Source: Candidatus Peribacteria bacterium
GTDB taxonomy: Bacteria > Patescibacteriota > Gracilibacteria > Peribacterales > Peribacteraceae
Direction of reading: 5' to 3'
Assembly (NCBI GenBank): GCA_943354555.1
Contig: CALRCM010000001.1
Coordinates: forward strand, 7,453 to 71,452
Length of the DNA: 64,000 bases
The notes beneath the pieces were generated by a model that ran no database searches, was not told the DNA's origin, and saw only the letters and a list, made by a program, of their open reading frames with translations. Numbering within the stretch: position 1 is the first letter of the stretch; every line of letters begins with the position of its first letter. Shown piece after piece: positions 5,328-64,000 of this stretch. The translations under genes and the position numbers were made by a program.

Positions 5328-5439
5328 AAGATACAAGATGCAAGATACAAAAAAGATACAAAAACCAAGGCGTAAAACATCCACAGAGTTTTTGGATATT
5401 GGAGTTTAGGATTTATTTGTATCTTGCATCTTGTATCTT
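5328..5439. repeat. Perfect 24-bp inverted repeat (AAGATACAAGATGCAAGATACAAA / TTTGTATCTTGCATCTTGTATCTT) with 64-nt spacer
   Basis: Arms at 5328-5351 and 5416-5439, read directly. Lies between convergent genes. The right arm encodes the last 8 codons (KIQDARYK) of the GT4 gene. Confidence 0.9.
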
Positions 5440-6663
5440 TGAATGAGCCTCGAAGAGCTTTAGGTATGCATCCACCTGCCTCTCCACAGAAAAATCCTTT
5501 TGGACACGTTTCCTCCCCACTTCCCCCATTTTTTTTGCCTGATCGGGATTCTGTAAAAGTGCAATGAGTGCATTGCTGAATTCCATAGTACCCCGTGGGT
5601 TCACAATGATTCCCGTCGTTCCATCCGCCACAACTTCCGGCGTTCCACCGAAGCAGGTGCCAACCACGGGTTTTCCGGCAGCCATCGCTTCCAGATTTAC
5701 CGTCGGAAAATTATCGAGATACAGAGATGGAGTGGTGACGACGTCGCATGCGAAGTAGCTCAGACGCGTTTGTTCCCGCGAGATCCAGCCTGTCGGTACA
5801 ACGGCTTTGCGTACGCGCTCCGTAGCAAATGCGAGATGCGGGAGGAGATGTTCCATTTCTCCATTCACTATGAATTGTGCGCTGGGAATTGCGTCAAGAA
5901 CACGATCAGCCGCAGCGAGCAGTGCACGGATTCCCTTGTCCTCGCGTACACGTCCGACAAAAAGGACAGCAGGTCCGGAAATGCCGTATTTTCCTTTGAA
6001 ATCCAGAATTGCCTCTTGTGATGGAACATCCCAATGTTCGATGCCGTTCGGAATAGTTGCGGCAACCGTGATCCTATTCATCCGGAGAAACGAGGCGACG
6101 GCACTGCTGATGGCAACCACTCCGGTTCCGGATTTCGCAAGAATGCGCCGGGTGGTACGGTTCCTCAGCGGCCAGTATTTGCGGCCGGCTTCTCCGATGT
6201 GATCCCACCAGTGCATCTGCAAAGGCACTCCTTTCATCGCAGCCTCTTCGTATTGCAGTCCACGTACGCGTCCGTACGAAACAAGCAGCGTGTCATGGGC
6301 GGTCAGAAGAATTTTTTTCGTATGACGTGCAGCGATCTCTAGACTTTCGTAGGTGATGTGATGATGCACGTTATGCGCATGTACCGCGTCCGGTTTCCAT
6401 TCTTCGAATACCTGCGAAAGCATCTTGCGCATTGCAGGGTCACCCAGACAATGACGATGCTGCTTGCTCAGCGGATAGGAGCTCAAGAGGCTGATCATTC
6501 CCTGGCTACGCACGATGTTTCCTAAAGATGCATCCTGATGTGTGGTGATCAGAAGCGTTTCATGGCCACGCTCGCGGTACCCCTGCTGCAGTTTATCGAC
6601 AATAACAGCGGCGCCACCGCGGGCTGTGGGGAGTGCGTCGTCATTGAGCAGGGCGATGCGCAT
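5413..6663 (-). CDS. Family 4 (GT-B, group 1) glycosyltransferase
   Basis: MRIALLNDDALPTARGGAAVIV... N-terminus and FVGRVREDKGIRALL...E(x7)E-type C-terminal domain. Start set at internal ATG 6663; the track ORF extends to 6759. Confidence 0.8.
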   Translation of the reverse strand: MRIALLNDDALPTARGGAAVIVDKLQQGYRERGHETLLITTHQDASLGNIVRSQGMISLLSSYPLSKQHRHCLGDPAMRKMLSQVFEEWKPDAVHAHNVHHHITYESLEIAARHTKKILLTAHDTLLVSYGRVRGLQYEEAAMKGVPLQMHWWDHIGEAGRKYWPLRNRTTRRILAKSGTGVVAISSAVASFLRMNRITVAATIPNGIEHWDVPSQEAILDFKGKYGISGPAVLFVGRVREDKGIRALLAAADRVLDAIPSAQFIVNGEMEHLLPHLAFATERVRKAVVPTGWISREQTRLSYFACDVVTTPSLYLDNFPTVNLEAMAAGKPVVGTCFGGTPEVVADGTTGIIVNPRGTMEFSNALIALLQNPDQAKKMGEVGRKRVQKDFSVERQVDAYLKLFEAHSKIQDARYK

Positions 6664-57976: not shown

Positions 57977-58056
57977 TATGGAGAGTGTACTTCTTCATAG
58001 GCATCAATTAAAGAGATAAGGCGTGCGTATTTCTATCTTGTTTTGGGGCATACTGT

Positions 58057-59016
58057 ATGTACATGTCCCGCATCCTCATTACCGGCTCCATCGCCTATGA
58101 CCTTCTCCTCTCCTATGAAGGCTCGTTTGCAGATGCCTTAAAAGGAAAGGATGTCGACCGGCTCTCCGTGAGCTTCTTTGCGCCGCACCTCAAGCGTCAT
58201 CATGGAGGAACAGGATCCAATATTGCATGGAACTTGCGTCTCCTCGGCGGAGAGCCATTGCTCGTGGGGACAGTTGGCACCGACGGAGGCAGTTACTGGG
58301 CACTTTTGGAAGAGAGAGGGATTGATACCTCGCATGTCGAGCAAAGGAAGGACAGCATCACTGCGACCGCAATCATCGGTACGGATAATGGTGAACGGCA
58401 GATCGCATTCTTTCATCCCGGTGCGGATGCACTTGGGCATTGGCCTGCCGCAACACTCTGCGACGACCGTGACGATATAGCGTGGGCGATTGTCGGTGCG
58501 CGCAATCCTGTGCTGATGCTGGAGGCAGCGCGATGGTGCGGCGCAGTGGGGTTACCTCTTCTCTTTGATCCTGCACAGCAGATTGTTGCACTGGGTGCGG
58601 ACGAACTACGGTCTGCGATTGGAGCGAGCAGAGCAGTCATTTGTAATGAATATGAATGGAGCGTGCTTTCCGAAAGAACCGGAATGCAGGAACGCGATAT
58701 ATTGAAAACAGCAGAATTCCTGATTGTCACACTCGGCGATAAAGGCGTTGCATTGCATACGAAGAAAGAAATGGAAGGAATTCCTGCATGCACTGCGGAT
58801 CAGGTCGTGAATCCCACAGGAGCAGGCGACGCATTCCGTGCAGGATTGCTTTTTGGATTGGAAAAGAAATGGAGTCTTACGGATTGTTGCAGGCTTGGAG
58901 CTGCAATGGGATCCAAAGTGGTAGAGATCGAGGGAACGCAATTGGATGCTTTGGATTTGGAAGAAGTATGGGAAAGGGCGAAAGTGACGTATGGAGAAAA
59001 ATTGCCAGTGGCATAA
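58057..59016 (+). CDS. PfkB-family carbohydrate/nucleoside kinase (adenosine-kinase-like, given ahcY linkage)
   Basis: HHGGTGSNIAWNL and NPTGAGDAFRAGLLFGL PfkB signatures. Substrate assignment is inference from context. Confidence 0.75.
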   Translation: MYMSRILITGSIAYDLLLSYEGSFADALKGKDVDRLSVSFFAPHLKRHHGGTGSNIAWNLRLLGGEPLLVGTVGTDGGSYWALLEERGIDTSHVEQRKDSITATAIIGTDNGERQIAFFHPGADALGHWPAATLCDDRDDIAWAIVGARNPVLMLEAARWCGAVGLPLLFDPAQQIVALGADELRSAIGASRAVICNEYEWSVLSERTGMQERDILKTAEFLIVTLGDKGVALHTKKEMEGIPACTADQVVNPTGAGDAFRAGLLFGLEKKWSLTDCCRLGAAMGSKVVEIEGTQLDALDLEEVWERAKVTYGEKLPVA

Positions 59017-59121
59017 ATGCACCGAATCCCAAACATCAAAAAAATTCCAAATACACAATGATCAATGATCCTTTGAACCATGATTCTTGGATTCTTATTT
59101 GGGATTTGGGATTCGGTGCAT
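59017..59121. repeat. 17-bp perfect inverted repeat ATGCACCGAATCCCAAA / TTTGGGATTCGGTGCAT spanning the whole kinase-ahcY spacer
   Basis: Arms at 59017-59033 (starting right after the stop codon) and 59105-59121 (ending 12 nt before ATG 59134); 71-nt AT-rich interior. Confidence 0.85.
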
Positions 59122-59133
59122 TACGATCTCCGC

Positions 59134-60387
59134 ATGTCCCACGTCAAAGACCCTTCACTCGCGGCCCAAGGCAAACTCAATCTCGAAATCGCCGAGAAGC
59201 GTATGGGGGCTCTTATGCAGTTACGCGCACGTTTTGCCAAGGAGCAGCCGTTTGCAGGTCTTACGATCGGGATGGCGCTTCATGTCACAAAGGAAACAGG
59301 TATTCTAGTGCGTACGTTACGGGATGGTGGAGCGAAGGTAGCTATCACAGGGTGTAATCCTTTAAGCACGCAAGATGACGTCGCAGCGGCACTCGCAGAA
59401 GAGAAAGATGTCCTCGTTTGGGCCTATAAAGGAGAGAGCACGGAGGACTATTACAAGTTTCTGACAGCAGTCATCGAAACCGAGCCGGATATCACCATCG
59501 ATGATGGTTGTGATCTGGTGACAGAGATCCACACGAAGCATCCCCACCTTCTCCAGAAGCTTCTCGGAGGTTGCGAAGAGACGACAACAGGCATCATCCG
59601 CCTCCATAGTATGGTGCGTGACGGTGCACTGAAGATTCCGATGATTGCTGTGAACGACAACAAAACGAAGCACCTCTTCGACAACTACTACGGTACGGGC
59701 CAGTCCACCTTCGACGGCATTCTCCGTTCGACCAATCTGCTTATTGCCGGAAAGACCGTTGTTGTTGTTGGTTACGGAAGCTGCGGCAAGGGCATTGCGA
59801 TGCGGGCCAAGGGCATGGGGGCGCAAGTCATCGTCACGGAAGTCGATCCATTCTGCGCTTTGCAGGCTGCTATGGACGGTCACAGAGTGCTCCCTATGAG
59901 TGAGGCTGCTTCGATTGGAGATCTTTTCGTTACGGTCACAGGCAACGTCCATGTGCTGCGCGCGGAGCACTTCGACTGTATGAAAGATGGCACGGTGATC
60001 GCCAACTCCGGACACTTCGATTGCGAGATCGATCTCAAAGCACTCGAAAAAATTGCCCGCCGTAAGAGGCGCGTGCGCCATTACCTCGATGAATACATGC
60101 TCAAAGACGGGCGAGTTGTCTACGTAGCGGGAGAGGGGAGGCTCGTGAACCTAGCGTCCGCCGAGGGGCATCCGAGCGAAGTGATGAGTATGAGCTTCAT
60201 GGGGCAGGCACTTGCCTGCGAATACCTTGTGAAAAACCGCGGCAAGCTGAATGCGGAGGTCATCACGCTTCCGCAGGAGATCGACCAGCAGATTTCTGCG
60301 ATGCAGCTCGAGGTGATGGGTATGAAGATTGATACGCTGACTGCTGAGCAGGTGGAATATTTGAAGAGTTGGAAGGAGGGGACATAG
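59134..60387 (+). CDS. ahcY: Adenosylhomocysteinase
   Basis: LAAQGKLNLEIAEKRMGALMQLR...GCNPLSTQDDVAAAL...CEETTTGI...GYGSCGKGIA...SGHFDCEID; canonical SAHH blocks. Start set at ATG 59134. Confidence 0.92.
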   Translation: MSHVKDPSLAAQGKLNLEIAEKRMGALMQLRARFAKEQPFAGLTIGMALHVTKETGILVRTLRDGGAKVAITGCNPLSTQDDVAAALAEEKDVLVWAYKGESTEDYYKFLTAVIETEPDITIDDGCDLVTEIHTKHPHLLQKLLGGCEETTTGIIRLHSMVRDGALKIPMIAVNDNKTKHLFDNYYGTGQSTFDGILRSTNLLIAGKTVVVVGYGSCGKGIAMRAKGMGAQVIVTEVDPFCALQAAMDGHRVLPMSEAASIGDLFVTVTGNVHVLRAEHFDCMKDGTVIANSGHFDCEIDLKALEKIARRKRRVRHYLDEYMLKDGRVVYVAGEGRLVNLASAEGHPSEVMSMSFMGQALACEYLVKNRGKLNAEVITLPQEIDQQISAMQLEVMGMKIDTLTAEQVEYLKSWKEGT

Positions 60388-60483
60388 GAATTGAGAATGG
60401 AAAATTGAGAATTGAGAATGAAGCGAGGTTTAGTGCTGCATTTACCTTGCCCTTGCCATTCCTCGCTCCTACACTTCCGCGCC

Positions 60484-60984
60484 ATGACGCGCCTAGATGA
60501 TCTTCGGCAATTGGAAGCGGAGCTCTCCGCAGTACGCCCAAGCAGGTGTGGTTGTGTCCATGAGCTTATTTCTTTTGCATCGGGAAAGGTGCAGTTTTGT
60601 CCGTCTGCAACGCGTGAGGCTAATGCAATTTGTTTTCACCGGAAGGATACCCGACATTTTTCTAAGCTTCTTGGTGAGGCTGCAAGACTCAATCTTCTCA
60701 ATGAAGAAGAGGAAGCCCAGTATCTTCGCGAAGCGGAGAGCATTCGGCATTCTGTACAGGATATTGATGTGCGTGCACGGGATACCGCTCAAAGTTTGGC
60801 ACTCAGCGGCGATCTGGTAGGCATCACAGATTTTTCCCAGCATTGGCTCGCAAACGAGACGCGGGATCGCCAACACAGCAATGTTGAAGATGTTGATTTC
60901 ATGATCGATACAATTCTCGGTCGTATTCATAGTGAAGCAACGGGTATTACTGATGCTGTAAGTAGACACACTTTCGCTGTCTAA
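60484..60984 (+). CDS. Hypothetical protein
   Basis: 166 aa from ATG 60484 (MTRLDDLRQLEAELS...). Coding-like composition, no recognisable motif. Confidence 0.4.
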   Translation: MTRLDDLRQLEAELSAVRPSRCGCVHELISFASGKVQFCPSATREANAICFHRKDTRHFSKLLGEAARLNLLNEEEEAQYLREAESIRHSVQDIDVRARDTAQSLALSGDLVGITDFSQHWLANETRDRQHSNVEDVDFMIDTILGRIHSEATGITDAVSRHTFAV

Positions 60985-61045
60985 TCTGTGTTTTCCTTGT
61001 AAACAGAAATCCACTCTCTTTGCCGTAATAAGCCATAAAACGCCT

Positions 61046-61129
61046 CTACAGGCATGTACCGTTGCAGCGGTACAATGGTATTGACAATAGTGCGAACATC
61101 CCTAAAATGCTCGCAAGATGAATCTTCAT
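61046..61129 (-). CDS. Candidate 27-aa hydrophobic peptide MKIHLASILGMFALLSIPLYRCNGTCL
   Basis: ATG 61129 is preceded by a perfect AAGGAGG 5 nt upstream (minus strand CCGGAAGGAGGAATGGATG), in a genome where SD sequences are otherwise nearly absent. The coding 5' end and RBS are antisense to the transcript predicted from the 61081-61108 promoter. Confidence 0.3.
   Translation of the reverse strand: MKIHLASILGMFALLSIPLYRCNGTCL
61081..61108 (+). promoter_or_regulatory. Near-consensus sigma70-type promoter TTGACA-16 nt-TAAAAT
   Basis: -35 TTGACA at 61081-61086 and -10 TAAAAT at 61103-61108, read directly. Confidence 0.5.
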
Positions 61130-61775
61130 CCATTCCTCCTTCCGGTCCGTTTCATTCGCTGCAAGAAGCAGACGGAAGGGATTGCATAAAGAGTATTCCG
61201 GAGAAAGTAGCATCCCTTCCCCACTTGGAAGGTTCCTTAGGCAGTGTCTCGTTCCTTGAAAGCATCGCACGTAGAAAACGATCTGCCTTTCTCTACCGGA
61301 GCTTGGATTGCTTTGGGCACCTCCGCTCTGCGTTCGCAGACGGATGCCGCCTCTGTGCGGTGTTTGCCTCTAGTCTGAGGTAAGTAGTGTTGAAAGGTGG
61401 AAGCGTCAGTGTTTCTTTTTTGGGAGATGACCATCATGGTCAACTGGATTGTTGTCGGAGAATTGGAGCTGCCAGCTCCTCGTCTGACTGTTCGCCGCAT
61501 TCGAGCGCGGCGGGTGCATCGTCGCCGCAAGGCGACCGCATCAATGCTCAGCAGGCGGACTTCAGTGTTGCTTCGCAAGTTGCGACGCTCCAGAAGCAGC
61601 ACGGGAATCCGTGCTGAGCTGGAAGCCAATTCCCGGCGTGCGGTGCGCCTCGCGCACCGCCATCTCCACCCTGAGCCGGTCTAACCGGCTTGCTGACGTC
61701 AATGTTGGGTGTCCCCTTGGCACCTAAACGATCTGGCTCCACCAATTGGGTGGGGCCAGATTTTCTTTTTATTTT
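61115..61775 (+). ncRNA. Candidate structured non-coding RNA (unassigned family) between the promoter and the intrinsic terminator
   Basis: No convincing ORF. Perfect stem-loops at 61465-61479 (6 bp), 61521-61536 (6 bp, GCAA tetraloop), 61597-61616 (8 bp), 61640-61660 (9 bp) and 61674-61690 (7 bp), plus a 9-bp stem at about 61137-61178. Confidence 0.35.
61733..61775 (+). terminator. Rho-independent terminator
   Basis: CTGGCTCCACC-AATTG-GGTGGGGCCAG (11-bp stem with one G.U pair) followed by ATTTTCTTTTTATTTT. Confidence 0.75.
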
Positions 61776-61799
61776 AAAGGCAGATCGTTTTTTACTCTC

Positions 61800-62465
61800 A
61801 TGTACGTTCCAACTCTCACTTTCGATGCAGGCAAAGAATCTATAGGTTCAGTGATGCATGCAGAATCACTGAGATGGACTCCTGAAGCCGGATTAGTGCA
61901 GTCTCTCAAGGCGCTCCATCGGCGTGCTGCCGAAGGTCGGTCCATAGAGCGTGATCGGCAAAATGCTGTGCGTCAGTGGGAGCGTACACAGGTTAGCCAT
62001 CGTATCCGTAATCATATTGAAAAACTGGGTTGCCTTCCTACGCGAGCCACACTTCCTACGTATACGTATTAATGGCTACAGAATGCGATTGAGCATGGCG
62101 CAGCTTTTTCAAATGCAGTGGAGATGGAGGTGCTACTAGGTCGAGAAGGCGTTCTGGCATCAATCACTGATCCCGGTGATGGGTTTGATCCTGATGTACT
62201 CATGATGTCTGCACAGTCAAAAAATACAGCACTGTATGAAGCGGAAGGTTATTCTTCAGGGAGAGGATATGGTTTGCATGGTGCGCTCCAAAGCTCAGAT
62301 GTCCGTATCGGTTTTGAGCATCTGGAGCATGGCTTCCGCGTTAATTTATTGAGTAGCAGACAAGAGATGCTTGATCTTATGGTGAGGCAGGAGGCCATGG
62401 TTGCTGGTTACTCATGCGACTCATCATTGTCTCCGAAGTCCCGAAGCTCACCAAGTTGCGACTGA
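61800..62465 (+). pseudogene. SpoIIAB/RsbW-like GHKL (HATPase_c) anti-sigma-factor-type kinase gene interrupted by an in-frame TAA at 62070-62072
   Basis: ORFs 61746-62072 and 62118-62465 share one frame. Reading through the stop gives ...LPTYTY*WLQNAIEHG...ITDPGDGFDP...GRGYGL (N, G1 and G2 boxes). The stop sits exactly 4 codons before the N-box Asn, where GHKL proteins have the catalytic Glu (GAA to TAA is one substitution). Confidence 0.55.
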
Positions 62466-62743
62466 TATCGTTGAACCAATTCCGCGAGTCCAGGTACTTC
62501 ACCGAGATCTCGAAGAAGATCCAATGGTATGCGGATATCGAATTTGCGGACAGCCTCTGCGAGCAAGCCCGCTGGCTTATTCACTTCTGGAAACCCTCCA
62601 ATGAATGCCGAGGCTCTTTCGATAAAATCAGACAATAGTTCGCCAGCCCGCTCCACCTCACCGCTTTCAATATTCAGCCCATCAAGAACGTAGGGAACTT
62701 CGTCGTAGGCCGGATTCAGATTGATTTCTGACACAGGAGACAT
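62408..62743 (-). CDS. Hypothetical acidic protein (111 aa)
   Basis: ATG-initiated, coding-like composition (MSPVSEINLNPAYDEVPYVLDGLNIESGEVERAGELLSDFIERA...). 58-nt convergent overlap with the GHKL pseudogene tail. Confidence 0.4.
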   Translation of the reverse strand: MSPVSEINLNPAYDEVPYVLDGLNIESGEVERAGELLSDFIERASAFIGGFPEVNKPAGLLAEAVRKFDIRIPLDLLRDLGEVPGLAELVQRYQSQLGELRDFGDNDESHE

Positions 62744-62822
62744 AGTTAATCGAACTTGACTCTAGGCTGCAAGGTGAAACTGAGGATAATCGGTTCTAGA
62801 TGAGCTGCACGTTGGATGCTGC

Positions 62823-63039
62823 GTTGTCCCCTCCGCTGCGGCTACGGGGACACAGGATCTTCGGCTTCGTCCATCGTCCTGCGGACTCGGACTCAGCTCG
62901 AATTCACGGGTGAGAAATCTACTGACACAGAATCTATGTTGTATGTCTGGTTGTCCCCTCCGCTGCGGCTACGGGGACACAGGATCTTCGGCTTCGCGCG
63001 TCGTCCTTCGGACTCGCGCTCAGCGCGAATTCACCTGTG
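62823..63039. repeat. Tandem duplication (period 127 bp) of a 90-nt hairpin-rich unit, abutting the 3' end of tRNA-Ser
   Basis: Units at 62823-62912 and 62950-63039. The first 47 nt are identical (GTTGTCCCCTCCGCTGCGGCTACGGGGACACAGGATCTTCGGCTTCG); the last 43 nt are about 79% identical. Each contains GTCCCC...GGGGAC and GTCC-loop-GGAC stems. Confidence 0.85.
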
Positions 63040-63127
63040 GCGGAGAGGGGGGGATTCGAACCCCCGAGACCCTTTCAGGTCTACACGCTTTCCAAGCGTG
63101 CGCACTAGGCCACTATGCGACCTCTCC
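63038..63127 (-). tRNA. tRNA-Ser(GGA): tRNA-Ser (anticodon GGA), long variable arm, CCA encoded
   Basis: Minus strand GGAGAGGTCGCATAGTGGCCTAGTGCGCACGCTTGGAAAGCGTGTAGACCTGAAAGGGTCTCGGGGGTTCGAATCCCCCCCTCTCCGCCA. 7-bp acceptor stem, CACGC/GCGTG anticodon stem with loop TTGGAAA, GACC/GGTC variable stem, GGGGG-TTCGAAT-CCCCC T-arm. Confidence 0.95.
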
Positions 63128-63269
63128 AGCAGAAGGAACTGTAACAAAAATTCTGAGATTCGCATTAGGAATTCTTAAGGTAATCATCAGAAACCGCACC
63201 CAAGAATGGGTGCTCTTTATAAAATCTGCCCCATAATAGGAACAGATTTATCGATGATTGTGCGAGTAC

Positions 63270-63518
63270 CTACTTCTTCGATCCGCATCCCGAGCAGCAA
63301 ATAAATTTGCTCAGGAAGGCGATGTTGATCGCAAAGGCGATCAACGCGAGAGAGGCACTGCTTCCCCCGAAGATAACGCCTCGGTCCGACATCAGTGTGC
63401 TGATGACACCCATCATCGCAGCAAGCGATGTGAGGAGCAGAAGGAAGACAACGACGCCGCGAAGGACGGCGCAAGGATCGATAGCGCTCGGAGCGCTTTT
63501 CTTTTTGAGGATTGGCAT
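63270..63518 (-). CDS. Small membrane protein (82 aa, two TM) with C-terminal CCSGCGSKK tail
   Basis: MPILKKKSAPSAIDPCAVLRGVVVFLLLLTSLAAMMGVISTLM...ASLALIAFAINIAFL. ATG at 63518; the track start 63557 is a TTG. Confidence 0.5.
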   Translation of the reverse strand: MPILKKKSAPSAIDPCAVLRGVVVFLLLLTSLAAMMGVISTLMSDRGVIFGGSSASLALIAFAINIAFLSKFICCSGCGSKK

Positions 63519-63570
63519 AGTGGAAATAAATGTAGCGTCTATTGGAATACTCTGCAATTGGCACGATCAG

Positions 63571-63659
63571 GTATTAGGTATTAAGTATTATGTATTAGGT
63601 ATGAAGCTACGTTTCATGTGCAGTTTTATACTTAATACATAATACTTAATACCTAATAC
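63571..63659. repeat. 32-bp inverted repeat (1 mismatch) built from GTATTAGG/TATTAAGT words, 25-nt spacer
   Basis: Arms at 63571-63602 and 63628-63659. In the divergent spacer, ending 22 nt before the pheT ATG. Confidence 0.85.
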
Positions 63660-63681
63660 TTCTTGCGCTACGCTACGCAAC

Positions 63682-64000
63682 ATGAAACTCTCCCTTCACT
63701 GGCTCTCGGAGTACGTCACATTTCCGGAGAAGGATCCGGAGAAGATCGCTGCGGCCATCACCGGCAGCATCGGCGAAGTGGACGAAGTGGAGGTGCAGGG
63801 GGCATTACTCGAGCATTGCTGCGTAGGCAAAGTCTGCAATCTTCGCAAACATCCGAATGCAGACAAGCTCAATCTCTGTGATGTGGAGACGGACAAAGGA
63901 ATGAAGAAGATCGTCTGTGGCGGTACGAATCTTCGTGAGGGGATGCTCGTGGCGTTTGCCCATGTGGGAGCGAAGGTGAAGCATGGAACTGAGGAATTTG
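63682..64000 (+). CDS. pheT: Phenylalanine--tRNA ligase beta subunit, N-terminal tRNA-binding domain (3' end off the window)
   Basis: Absent from the ORF track because it is open at the edge. My translation from ATG 63682: MKLSLHWLSEYVTFPEKDPEKIAAAITGSIGEVDEVE...GKVCNLRKHPNADKLNLCDVETDKGMKKIVCGGTNLREGMLVAFAHVGA, the classic PheT start. Confidence 0.85.
   Translation, partial: MKLSLHWLSEYVTFPEKDPEKIAAAITGSIGEVDEVEVQGALLEHCCVGKVCNLRKHPNADKLNLCDVETDKGMKKIVCGGTNLREGMLVAFAHVGAKVKHGTEEF

Follow-up and report, generated by a model that had tools for sequence, protein, structure and literature searches.

A probable small-protein mRNA with a conserved structured leader downstream of ahcY in Candidatus Peribacteria

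The DNA analyzed here is a 64,000-nucleotide stretch of a Candidatus Peribacteria contig (CALRCM010000001.1, positions 7,453 to 71,452, forward strand), called the window in what follows, with coordinates counted from its first letter. In this window, ahcY (59134-60384) and a gene for a 166-aa protein are followed by a unit of about 660 nt that runs from a promoter to a terminator. The initial annotation had described this unit as an orphan candidate for a novel structured RNA, with no convincing open reading frame (ORF) and with a dense series of perfect hairpins in its 3' half. We describe here its long 5' leader, the small Arg-rich ORF behind the leader, and the relatives of both in other Peribacteria genomes. 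The coordinates of all features are collected in Table 1.

The two ends proposed for the unit were borne out. The near-consensus promoter is one of two promoter-like sites in the region 58000-64000, where 4.8 would be expected by chance. Its TTGAC (-35) and TA..T (-10) motifs are invariant in 15 aligned Peribacteria loci, and transcription is inferred to start near 61115. At the other end, the strong intrinsic terminator consists of a stem of 14 pairs, eight of them G-C, followed by the tail TTCTTTTTAT. It is kept in the homologous locus L088 through compensatory changes: CUGG..CCAG has become CUGA..UCAG, and CUCCACC:GGUGGGG has become CCCCGUCC:GGACGGGG. No terminator-like site was found by scanning between the promoter and 61730.

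Relatives of the locus were collected by several routes. The AhcY relatives retrieved belonged to Candidatus Peribacteria (Peregrinibacteria, candidate phyla radiation or CPR) genomes. In one of these, L001, the AhcY protein is 90% identical and synteny extends as far as the tRNA-Ser gene. In this first comparison, alignment was possible only for the promoter region and the initial ~190 nt of the unit, at 82% identity versus 77% for the flanking genes. A gapped DNA pattern derived from the promoter and 5' part then retrieved three metagenome contigs, and L084, L085 and L086 were found by protein look-ups through the upstream 166-aa gene. Finally, an iterative nhmmer search from six sequences converged on ~230 nt comprising palindrome, promoter and leader. 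It located the leader in no fewer than 15 distinct loci, on the plus strand in every case and immediately behind either ahcY or the downstream neighbor of ahcY. The position of the unit just downstream of ahcY is conserved in Candidatus Peribacteria, where its neighbors pfkB and ahcY are genes of the methyl cycle.

On these comparisons the leader is the most conserved part of the unit, and it carries a conserved, covarying predicted RNA structure. Its identity to L088 (85.6%) is the same as that of ahcY (85%) and far above that of the ORF behind it (61.6%), the promoter region and the 3' untranslated region (UTR) being 82% and 66% identical, respectively. Comparative folding showed that the first ~150 nt of the ~320-nt leader are predicted to form a conserved three-way junction. 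The covariance model of this junction, R1, matched 16 Peribacteria loci at 68-124 bits and the 64-kb window just once. In the alignment made by the model, pairing was found in 79% of cells, versus 47-55% when the partners were slid. Covariation with the homologous loci, which the initial annotation had put forward as a test of its candidate RNA, was found: changes on both sides occur in 11 of the 17 junction pairs, and the covariation score was 0.373, versus 0.243 for shuffles (0 of 500 as high), as counted on an alignment fitted to the model and among related sequences. At the corresponding site, 15 of the 16 loci have the P2 hairpin, whose stem takes at least seven different sequences, and P3 closed in all 16 (mean z -2.7). 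The unconstrained minimum free energy structure was the three-way junction in 9 of 16 loci. RNAalifold on a MAFFT alignment of the 16 leaders recovered three pairs only, because the helices were out of register; per-sequence folds and the covariance model were used instead.

Other pairings are available to the same RNA. The 9-bp stem first placed at about 61137-61178 exists, with 7 bp rather than nine (61138-44 with 61173-79), and a perfect alternative of 9 bp, 61174-82 with 61212-20, detected in an inverted-repeat search, competes with it. Likewise, four C-rich or G-rich segments of the leader can also pair otherwise (1:2 and 3:4), and a switch between alternative leader folds is possible. 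Beyond the junction lie the two conserved blocks, where the pattern G.TC.TT...A.CA is invariant or nearly so in the 16 loci. Block 1 does not look coding, since its variation falls at the would-be first codon positions while the third positions are constant. Block 2 begins an ORF (MMRNPLL) in L004, and the same ORF start is found in L031, L003 and L019; in the window, L001 and L008 the block lacks a start codon. Upstream of ahcY, the leader model also gave weak second hits, at L035 5100-5247 (E 9e-5) and L003 5380-5521 (E 0.015). Behind the copy in L035 lies another small basic ORF, of 86 aa (~5335-5595).

Table 1. Features of the unit and of its immediate surroundings, in window coordinates. 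L088 and L093 are homologous loci; SD, Shine-Dalgarno.
Feature	Position	Strand	Evidence or conservation
Palindrome TGTACCGTTGCAGCGGTACA, 20 nt	61055-61074		6 nt upstream of -35 box
Sigma-70-type promoter TTGACA-16-TAAAAT	61081-61108	+	11/12 consensus positions matched
5' leader, ~320 nt, non-coding	61115-61435	+	85.6% identical to L088
Predicted three-way junction	61138-61232	+	Covariance model R1, 16 loci
P1, closing helix	61138-43 with 61227-32	+	C/U-rich with G-rich segment
P2 hairpin	61155-58/61159-62 with 61168-71/61173-76	+	Per-sequence folds
P3, long hairpin, loop AUAAAGAGUAUUCCGGAG	61174-82 (model 61177-82) with 61212-20 (model 61212-17)	+	
Conserved block 1 after junction, GTTCCTTGAAAGCATCG	61251-67	+	16 loci
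Conserved block 2 after junction, GTAGAAAACGATCTGCCTTTCTCT	61271-94	+	16 loci
SD-like GGGAG	61422-61426	+	9 nt upstream of ATG 61436
Start-codon hairpin GACCA-UCA-UGGUC	61429-61441	+	In window, L093, L088
82-aa Arg-rich protein gene	61436-61684	+	Homologues, frame conservation, SD-like site
Perfect 7-bp hairpin	61465-61479	+	Lineage-specific; not maintained in L088 or L093
Hairpin GUCGCC-GCAA-GGCGAC inside ORF	61521-61536	+	Conserved
Perfect 8-bp hairpin	61597-61616	+	Stem identical in L093, absent in L088
9-bp hairpin inside ORF	61640-61660	+	Conserved
Stop-codon hairpin, TAA (61682-84) in loop and 3' arm	61674-61690	+	Position conserved
3'UTR block GCTGACGTCAATGTTGGGTG, then short hairpin	61692-61724	+	GGTG 61708-11 with CACC 61721-24
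Intrinsic terminator, 14-bp stem, 5-nt loop, T run	61730-61775 (stem 61730-61762)	+	Scan; L088
Post-terminator block AAAGGCAGATCGTTTTTTACT	61776-61796	+	Invariant in window, L093, L088; similar in L083

No known RNA family accounted for the unit. A scan of the window with the 4227 models of Rfam 15 at gathering score returned the tRNA-Ser only and nothing in the unit. A permissive scan of 60900-61900 (E<=10) gave no family match, with nothing better than E=3 or 16.7 bits. The large ornate RNAs suggested as candidates (ROOL, GOLLD, OLE, raiA, HEARO) were thus not recovered, and neither was 6S RNA. These scans, together with ARAGORN, which found no transfer-messenger RNA (tmRNA), agree with the earlier failure to see RNase P, tmRNA or signal recognition particle RNA signatures. 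A literature search found no Peribacteria RNA motifs. The proposal of a novel structured RNA therefore stands in part: there is a conserved, covarying fold without an Rfam match, but it lies in the 5' leader (~61138-61232, with blocks to ~61294) and not in the 3' half.

Behind the leader, the frame that the initial annotation had dismissed in finding no convincing ORF encodes a protein of 82 aa with 20 Arg and a net charge of about +17 (ATG 61427 is an alternative start). An identical 82-aa gene call, P0005, is present in a public assembly. When 1.84 billion representative proteins were searched exhaustively with phmmer, the 61436-61681 frame gave two matches, P0005 and P0006 (84 aa, 47% identity, E 9.5e-11). 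A profile search identified P0007 (90 aa, E 1.6e-23), whose identity is 76% within the BLAST segment and 63% along the full alignment. All three proteins are encoded in syntenic Peribacteria loci, in genes predicted by public callers, and their contigs share the gene order pfkB, ahcY, 166/179-aa gene, leader and small ORF. One of the frames of the supposed orphan RNA gene thus has conserved protein homologues, P0006 and P0007, a result that the initial annotation had itself named as refuting its proposal; the unit is therefore probably an mRNA and not an orphan non-coding RNA gene.

The pattern of divergence in the ORF is that of a reading frame. Its codon-aware alignment to L088 contains a single 3-nt indel at 61.6% nucleotide identity, unlike the alignment of the leader to L088, which contains 1- and 5-nt indels; no indel separates the ORF from that of L093. 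GGAG-type sites equivalent to the Shine-Dalgarno (SD)-like GGGAG stand at the corresponding place in both loci. Among the six frames, the Arg frame scores best in codon usage, its mix of Arg codons mirrors that of the genome, and residues other than Arg are conserved in the protein family. These alignments show an ORF that appears to evolve much faster than the leader, but keeps its frame and has homologues. An AlphaFold2 model of the protein, made from a three-sequence alignment, consists of a beta-hairpin and two long helices (predicted local distance difference test, pLDDT, 78.5). No significant match to the 82-aa protein was found in Pfam, NCBIfam, PHROGs or PDB sequences (best PDB E = 2.8), and a Foldseek search of the model against the PDB returned generic helical hairpins only, all at E > 0.5. 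None of the ORFs of the region matched Pfam.

Altogether, these comparisons indicate that the unit is probably a conserved monocistronic mRNA of Candidatus Peribacteria, in which a small Arg-rich protein is encoded behind a new cis-acting structured leader. Several observations weigh against this reading. On the protein side, the family has three members only among the 1.8-5.8 billion proteins searched, the margin by which codon usage favors the Arg frame is slight, and the ORFs of the window and L088 differ at 14 codons synonymously versus 44 non-synonymously, with differences by codon position of 32/24/38. Selection on the 82-aa protein looks weak or relaxed, and the protein itself looks real and fast-evolving. 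On the RNA side, the folding z of the junction is modest (mean -1.4, all 16 negative), and the basis on which covariation was counted, given above, counts here as well. No conserved pairing that would sequester the SD was found by folding, the predicted partners differing among homologues; sequestration by a CCUCC-like leader segment was rejected on the same grounds. Finally, the ORFs behind the leader in other lineages fall into at least five unrelated families, which is unusual for a riboswitch-type regulator and is considered below.

Competing frames in and around the unit were rejected. A plus-strand ORF of 109 aa (61054-61383) starts upstream of the -35 box, and its frame is lost in L088, L001 and L083. 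Gene callers place such a spurious ORF of 109-124 aa over the leader, in a frame that changes between genomes. A 76-aa Ser/Ala frame (61387-61617) is only 44 aa long in L088. It was also rejected as an orthologue of the 44-aa peptides found in other lineages, although MAFFT set its SD and GTG opposite the L001 start; the true start context, GGGAG..ATGGTCAAC, aligns with ATG 61436. Homology of the 82-aa protein itself to these 41-44-aa RRGFGCGRRG peptides was not supported either (BLASTP E = 0.03, hhalign probability 0.4%). The two share short motifs, MVNWI versus MANAI and KLR..IR..LEA, with 9/17 identities, and the resemblance is treated as a positional analogy only.

Folding of the whole transcript revealed strong structure in its second half. 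The minimum free energy of 61115-61775 was -290.9 kcal/mol on the plus strand (z -7.2 versus shuffles) and -259.7 on the minus strand. The excess lies in 61440-61775 (z -8.2), with z -1.7 for the 5' part and +0.4 to +1.4 for three coding controls. In relatives, z for ORF and 3'UTR was -8.3 (L084), -6.8 (L083), -3.5 (L001) and -4.0 (L035). The five 3' hairpins noticed at the outset are all perfect in the window, with stems of 7 bp (61465-79), 8 bp (61597-616), 9 bp (61640-60) and 7 bp (61674-90) besides that at 61521-36. They lie inside and just after the ORF, in sequence conserved only in the two closest lineages.

Five features of this part are maintained in the window, L093 and L088, several of them with compensatory changes: the start-codon hairpin, the 61521-36 and 61640-60 hairpins, the stop-codon hairpin and the terminator. 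The 61521-36 hairpin reads AUCGCC-GCAU-GGCGAU in L088, a compensatory change of G-C to A-U, and GUUGCC-GCAA-GGCGAC in L093, a wobble change. The 61640-60 hairpin has become GCGGUGCGU-UUG-AUGCGCCGC in L088, with one double change of C-G to U-A and two wobble changes, and keeps 8 of 9 pairs in L093. At the stop codon, wholly different stems occupy the same place (AGCCGGU/ACCGGCU in the window, GCGCC/GGCGC in L093, CGCGG/CCGCG in L088). Stop codons in a hairpin loop are also found in L084, L001 and L083, and analogous hairpins with AUG in the loop in L084 and L001. In the 3'UTR, GCTGACGTCAATGTTGGGTG is invariant among the three loci except for one T/C, and the short hairpin behind it is kept with different loops. 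The mRNA body thus appears to be under some structural selection. Since only some of its hairpins are maintained in relatives, the series does not appear to be a conserved ornate RNA. The unit does resemble large ornate non-coding RNAs (OLE, GOLLD, ROOL, HEARO, raiA) in spanning ~660 nt from promoter to terminator, in its many hairpins and in having escaped annotation. It differs from them in lacking any covariance-model match even at E<=10, in that two fifths of its transcript is a frame-conserved ORF, and in that the sequence of its hairpin-rich part is not conserved outside the closest relatives.

By the criteria of our scan, 15 of 16 loci have a small, SD-preceded ORF behind the leader, L024 offering an uncertain candidate only. 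The products are diverse. Arg-rich proteins of 81-90 aa are encoded in the window, L093 and L088, and basic RRGFGCGRRG peptides of 41-44 aa in L084, L001 and L083. Cys-rich proteins with CxxCP motifs occur in L004, L008, L031, L003 and L019, a C2H2-like protein in L035, a NNVT.ERQ family in L021 and L024, and other small ORFs in L013, L014 and L042. Acidic as well as basic ORFs are found, and the genes behind the leader do not belong to one functional class. The 41-44-aa peptides have a good SD and Joint Genome Institute gene calls, and the changes in their conserved core are mostly synonymous. A constant leader with a variable small-protein cargo amounts, as far as these sequences go, to a cassette-like pattern.

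A side comparison with L084 and L085 suggests recombination at the locus. From 60466 to 61243, which covers the 166-aa gene, the promoter and the three-way junction, the window is 96.5% identical to L084; from 61244 to 61799 the two are unrelated at the DNA level, and similarity resumes at 61800 with 80% identity. For reference, ahcY is 85% identical between the window and L084/L085, and the downstream gene 80%. The abrupt end of similarity at 61243 looks like the trace of a recent recombination event that broke within the leader, just where the junction ends. Here, 556 nt in the window replace 891 nt of L084 that hold the gene for a 44-aa peptide and one for a 149-aa protein.

The unrelated cargo raises the question of whether the RNA itself could be the conserved product. 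The leader or the whole transcript would then be a trans-acting or dual-function non-coding RNA, with the ORFs incidental, young or secondary. Such an RNA would readily account for a leader that is kept across 16 loci in front of at least five unrelated ORF families, for its much higher identity to L088 than that of the ORF (85.6% versus 61.6%), for the covariation of the junction and for a breakpoint exactly at the junction end. The weak second copy in L035, which again precedes a small ORF, was counted on the same side. Against it stand the recurrence of a small ORF with a good SD behind nearly every copy of the leader (15/16, L024 being uncertain), the lack of a terminator in the stretch between leader and ORF, the frame and length of the window ORF, which are kept over a large divergence, and the mostly synonymous change in the core of the L084, L001 and L083 peptides. 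We regard this explanation as unlikely, and keep it in consideration because the cargo ORFs are so variable.

The unit could also be read as decaying DNA, a non-functional remnant of a gene cassette, with its hairpins as chance palindromes in GC-rich sequence. The neighboring 205-aa gene does contain an in-frame TAA, the window locus lacks the 149-aa and PolX genes that relatives have, and the 3' half of the unit has no DNA similarity to L084. Nevertheless, L093 and L088 both retain the promoter, the leader, the ORF frame, the terminator and several of the hairpins, and a z of -8 is far beyond chance. Because of the conservation in these two loci, we consider decay largely refuted and scarcely credible.

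Small ORFs behind long folded leaders are also known from type I toxin mRNAs (hok, tisB, zorO), and the unit shares with them a long 5'UTR, a start codon within a hairpin, an extremely structured mRNA, a fast-evolving small ORF and a promoter and terminator of its own. If it were a toxic small-protein module of this kind, the structured mRNA would keep translation low until processing or induction; the variable cargo would fit, as would stress induction through the palindrome, a candidate operator. The product, however, is hydrophilic and Arg-rich rather than hydrophobic, and its AlphaFold2 model is a soluble helical hairpin, not a membrane peptide. No antisense RNA signal was found: a consensus scan of 58000-64000, which is crude and therefore a weak test, detected no promoter-like site on the minus strand. 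A minus-strand 27-aa hydrophobic peptide with a perfect SD (MKIHLASILGMFALLSIPLYRCNGTCL, from 61133 downward), opposite the start of the leader, resembles a type I toxin, and was rejected because its frame is shifted in L001 and interrupted by a stop in L083. Such conservation as this ORF shows is due to its overlap with the promoter and the palindrome. Thus, a type I-like module appears quite improbable.

The Arg-rich ORF followed by a strong terminator also recalls leader-peptide attenuators, in which translation of the Arg codons would control read-through of the 61730 terminator into the downstream gene. Indeed, 20 of the 82 codons specify Arg, the stop codon lies in a hairpin, the terminator starts 45 nt past it and a conserved block, AAAGGCAGATCGTTTTTTACT, follows. 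Known leader peptides are much shorter than this ORF, however, residues other than Arg are conserved in its product, and Cys-rich or acidic ORFs occupy its place behind the same leader in other lineages. Moreover, the genes after the conserved block vary by lineage (a 205-aa gene in the window, 85-aa or 143-aa genes elsewhere) and are unlinked to arginine. The sole alternative pairing for the terminator, 61726-38 with 61778-90, does not covary; it is itself unlikely, because the complementarity is lost in L088. We therefore consider attenuation very improbable.

Within the preferred reading, that of a small-protein mRNA with a cis-acting leader, the leader would act on the expression of whichever small ORF follows it. 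It may control translation initiation or mRNA stability, for example if a protein or small ligand bound to the junction altered access to the ribosome-binding site and the start-codon hairpin. The leader has several properties of riboswitch-type aptamers or protein-binding leaders: it lies between a conserved promoter and a same-strand ORF, it contains a compact three-way junction with covarying helices followed by conserved unpaired blocks, and it is more conserved than the gene behind it. Unlike known structured cis-regulatory leaders, it matches none of the 4227 Rfam models, the genes behind it are not of one functional family, and no recognizable terminator or SD-sequestering expression platform was found in it. 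A structured leader before a very small, very basic and probably nucleic-acid-binding protein is also reminiscent of autoregulatory leaders of ribosomal or RNA-binding proteins. The Arg-rich helical protein may bind nucleic acid, and feedback through its own leader is mechanistically plausible. Unlike the products of autoregulatory mRNAs, though, the 82-aa protein could be assigned neither by sequence nor by fold to a ribosomal or any other known family, and elsewhere acidic and Cys-rich ORFs stand behind the leader.

A further candidate control element is the palindrome that adjoins the -35 box. It occurs at the equivalent position in most orthologous Peribacteria loci and is a perfect palindrome in L001. 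Its arm mismatches across loci are always G.U on the plus strand, and L035 has a UACG loop. It is a candidate either for an operator, in which case it could bind a dimeric regulator, or for a 3' RNA hairpin of the upstream gene's transcript. With TGTACCGTTGCAGCGGTACA present as a single copy in the window at 0 mismatches, a repeated element of the REP type was rejected; a LexA box was considered and not confirmed.

The leader has no Rfam counterpart, and the protein families are orphans. No Peribacteria or other CPR bacteria can be grown in culture, and to our knowledge almost nothing has been established about their regulation. A leader RNA that keeps the same genomic position in 16 or more species-level lineages, with a covarying three-way junction, a conserved promoter and a neighboring palindrome, is thus a testable candidate for a CPR-specific regulatory RNA, and the swapping of unrelated small ORFs behind one leader is an unusual pattern worth explaining. 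More speculatively, and with considerable doubt, the junction may define a new ligand- or protein-sensing class of regulatory RNA in CPR Peribacteria, a portable module for fast-diversifying nucleic-acid-binding or Cys-rich small proteins, or a stable RNA processed from the 5' end. The narrowness of the family makes the immediate impact moderate. For annotation, the locus illustrates how a GC-rich, Arg-rich small ORF with perfect hairpins and several open phases can look non-coding by eye and yet be a conserved gene.

The surroundings of the unit have features of their own. Upstream, the 166-aa protein (60484-60984) carries a conserved Cys pattern, RxCGCxHELI...QFC, and its gene always precedes the unit in the sub-lineage of the window; two relatives only were found among 5.8 billion proteins. 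Downstream, the intact 205-aa gene of L084, which has a weak HATPase_c_2 or anti-sigma-kinase-like match, corresponds to window 61803-62465, where the orthologue is split by an in-frame TAA (62070-62072; GAA in L084). This could reflect a pseudogene, a sequencing error or read-through. The tRNA gene reported about 1.3 kb from the unit was confirmed as a tRNA-Ser(GGA) at 63038-63127 on the minus strand. A tandem direct repeat of 102 nt (62811-62912 and 62938-63039, 86% identity) adjoins its 3' end. On the minus strand, both copies carry a GUCCCC...GGGGAC hairpin, and a short stretch related to the repeat is present at L084 3079-3115.

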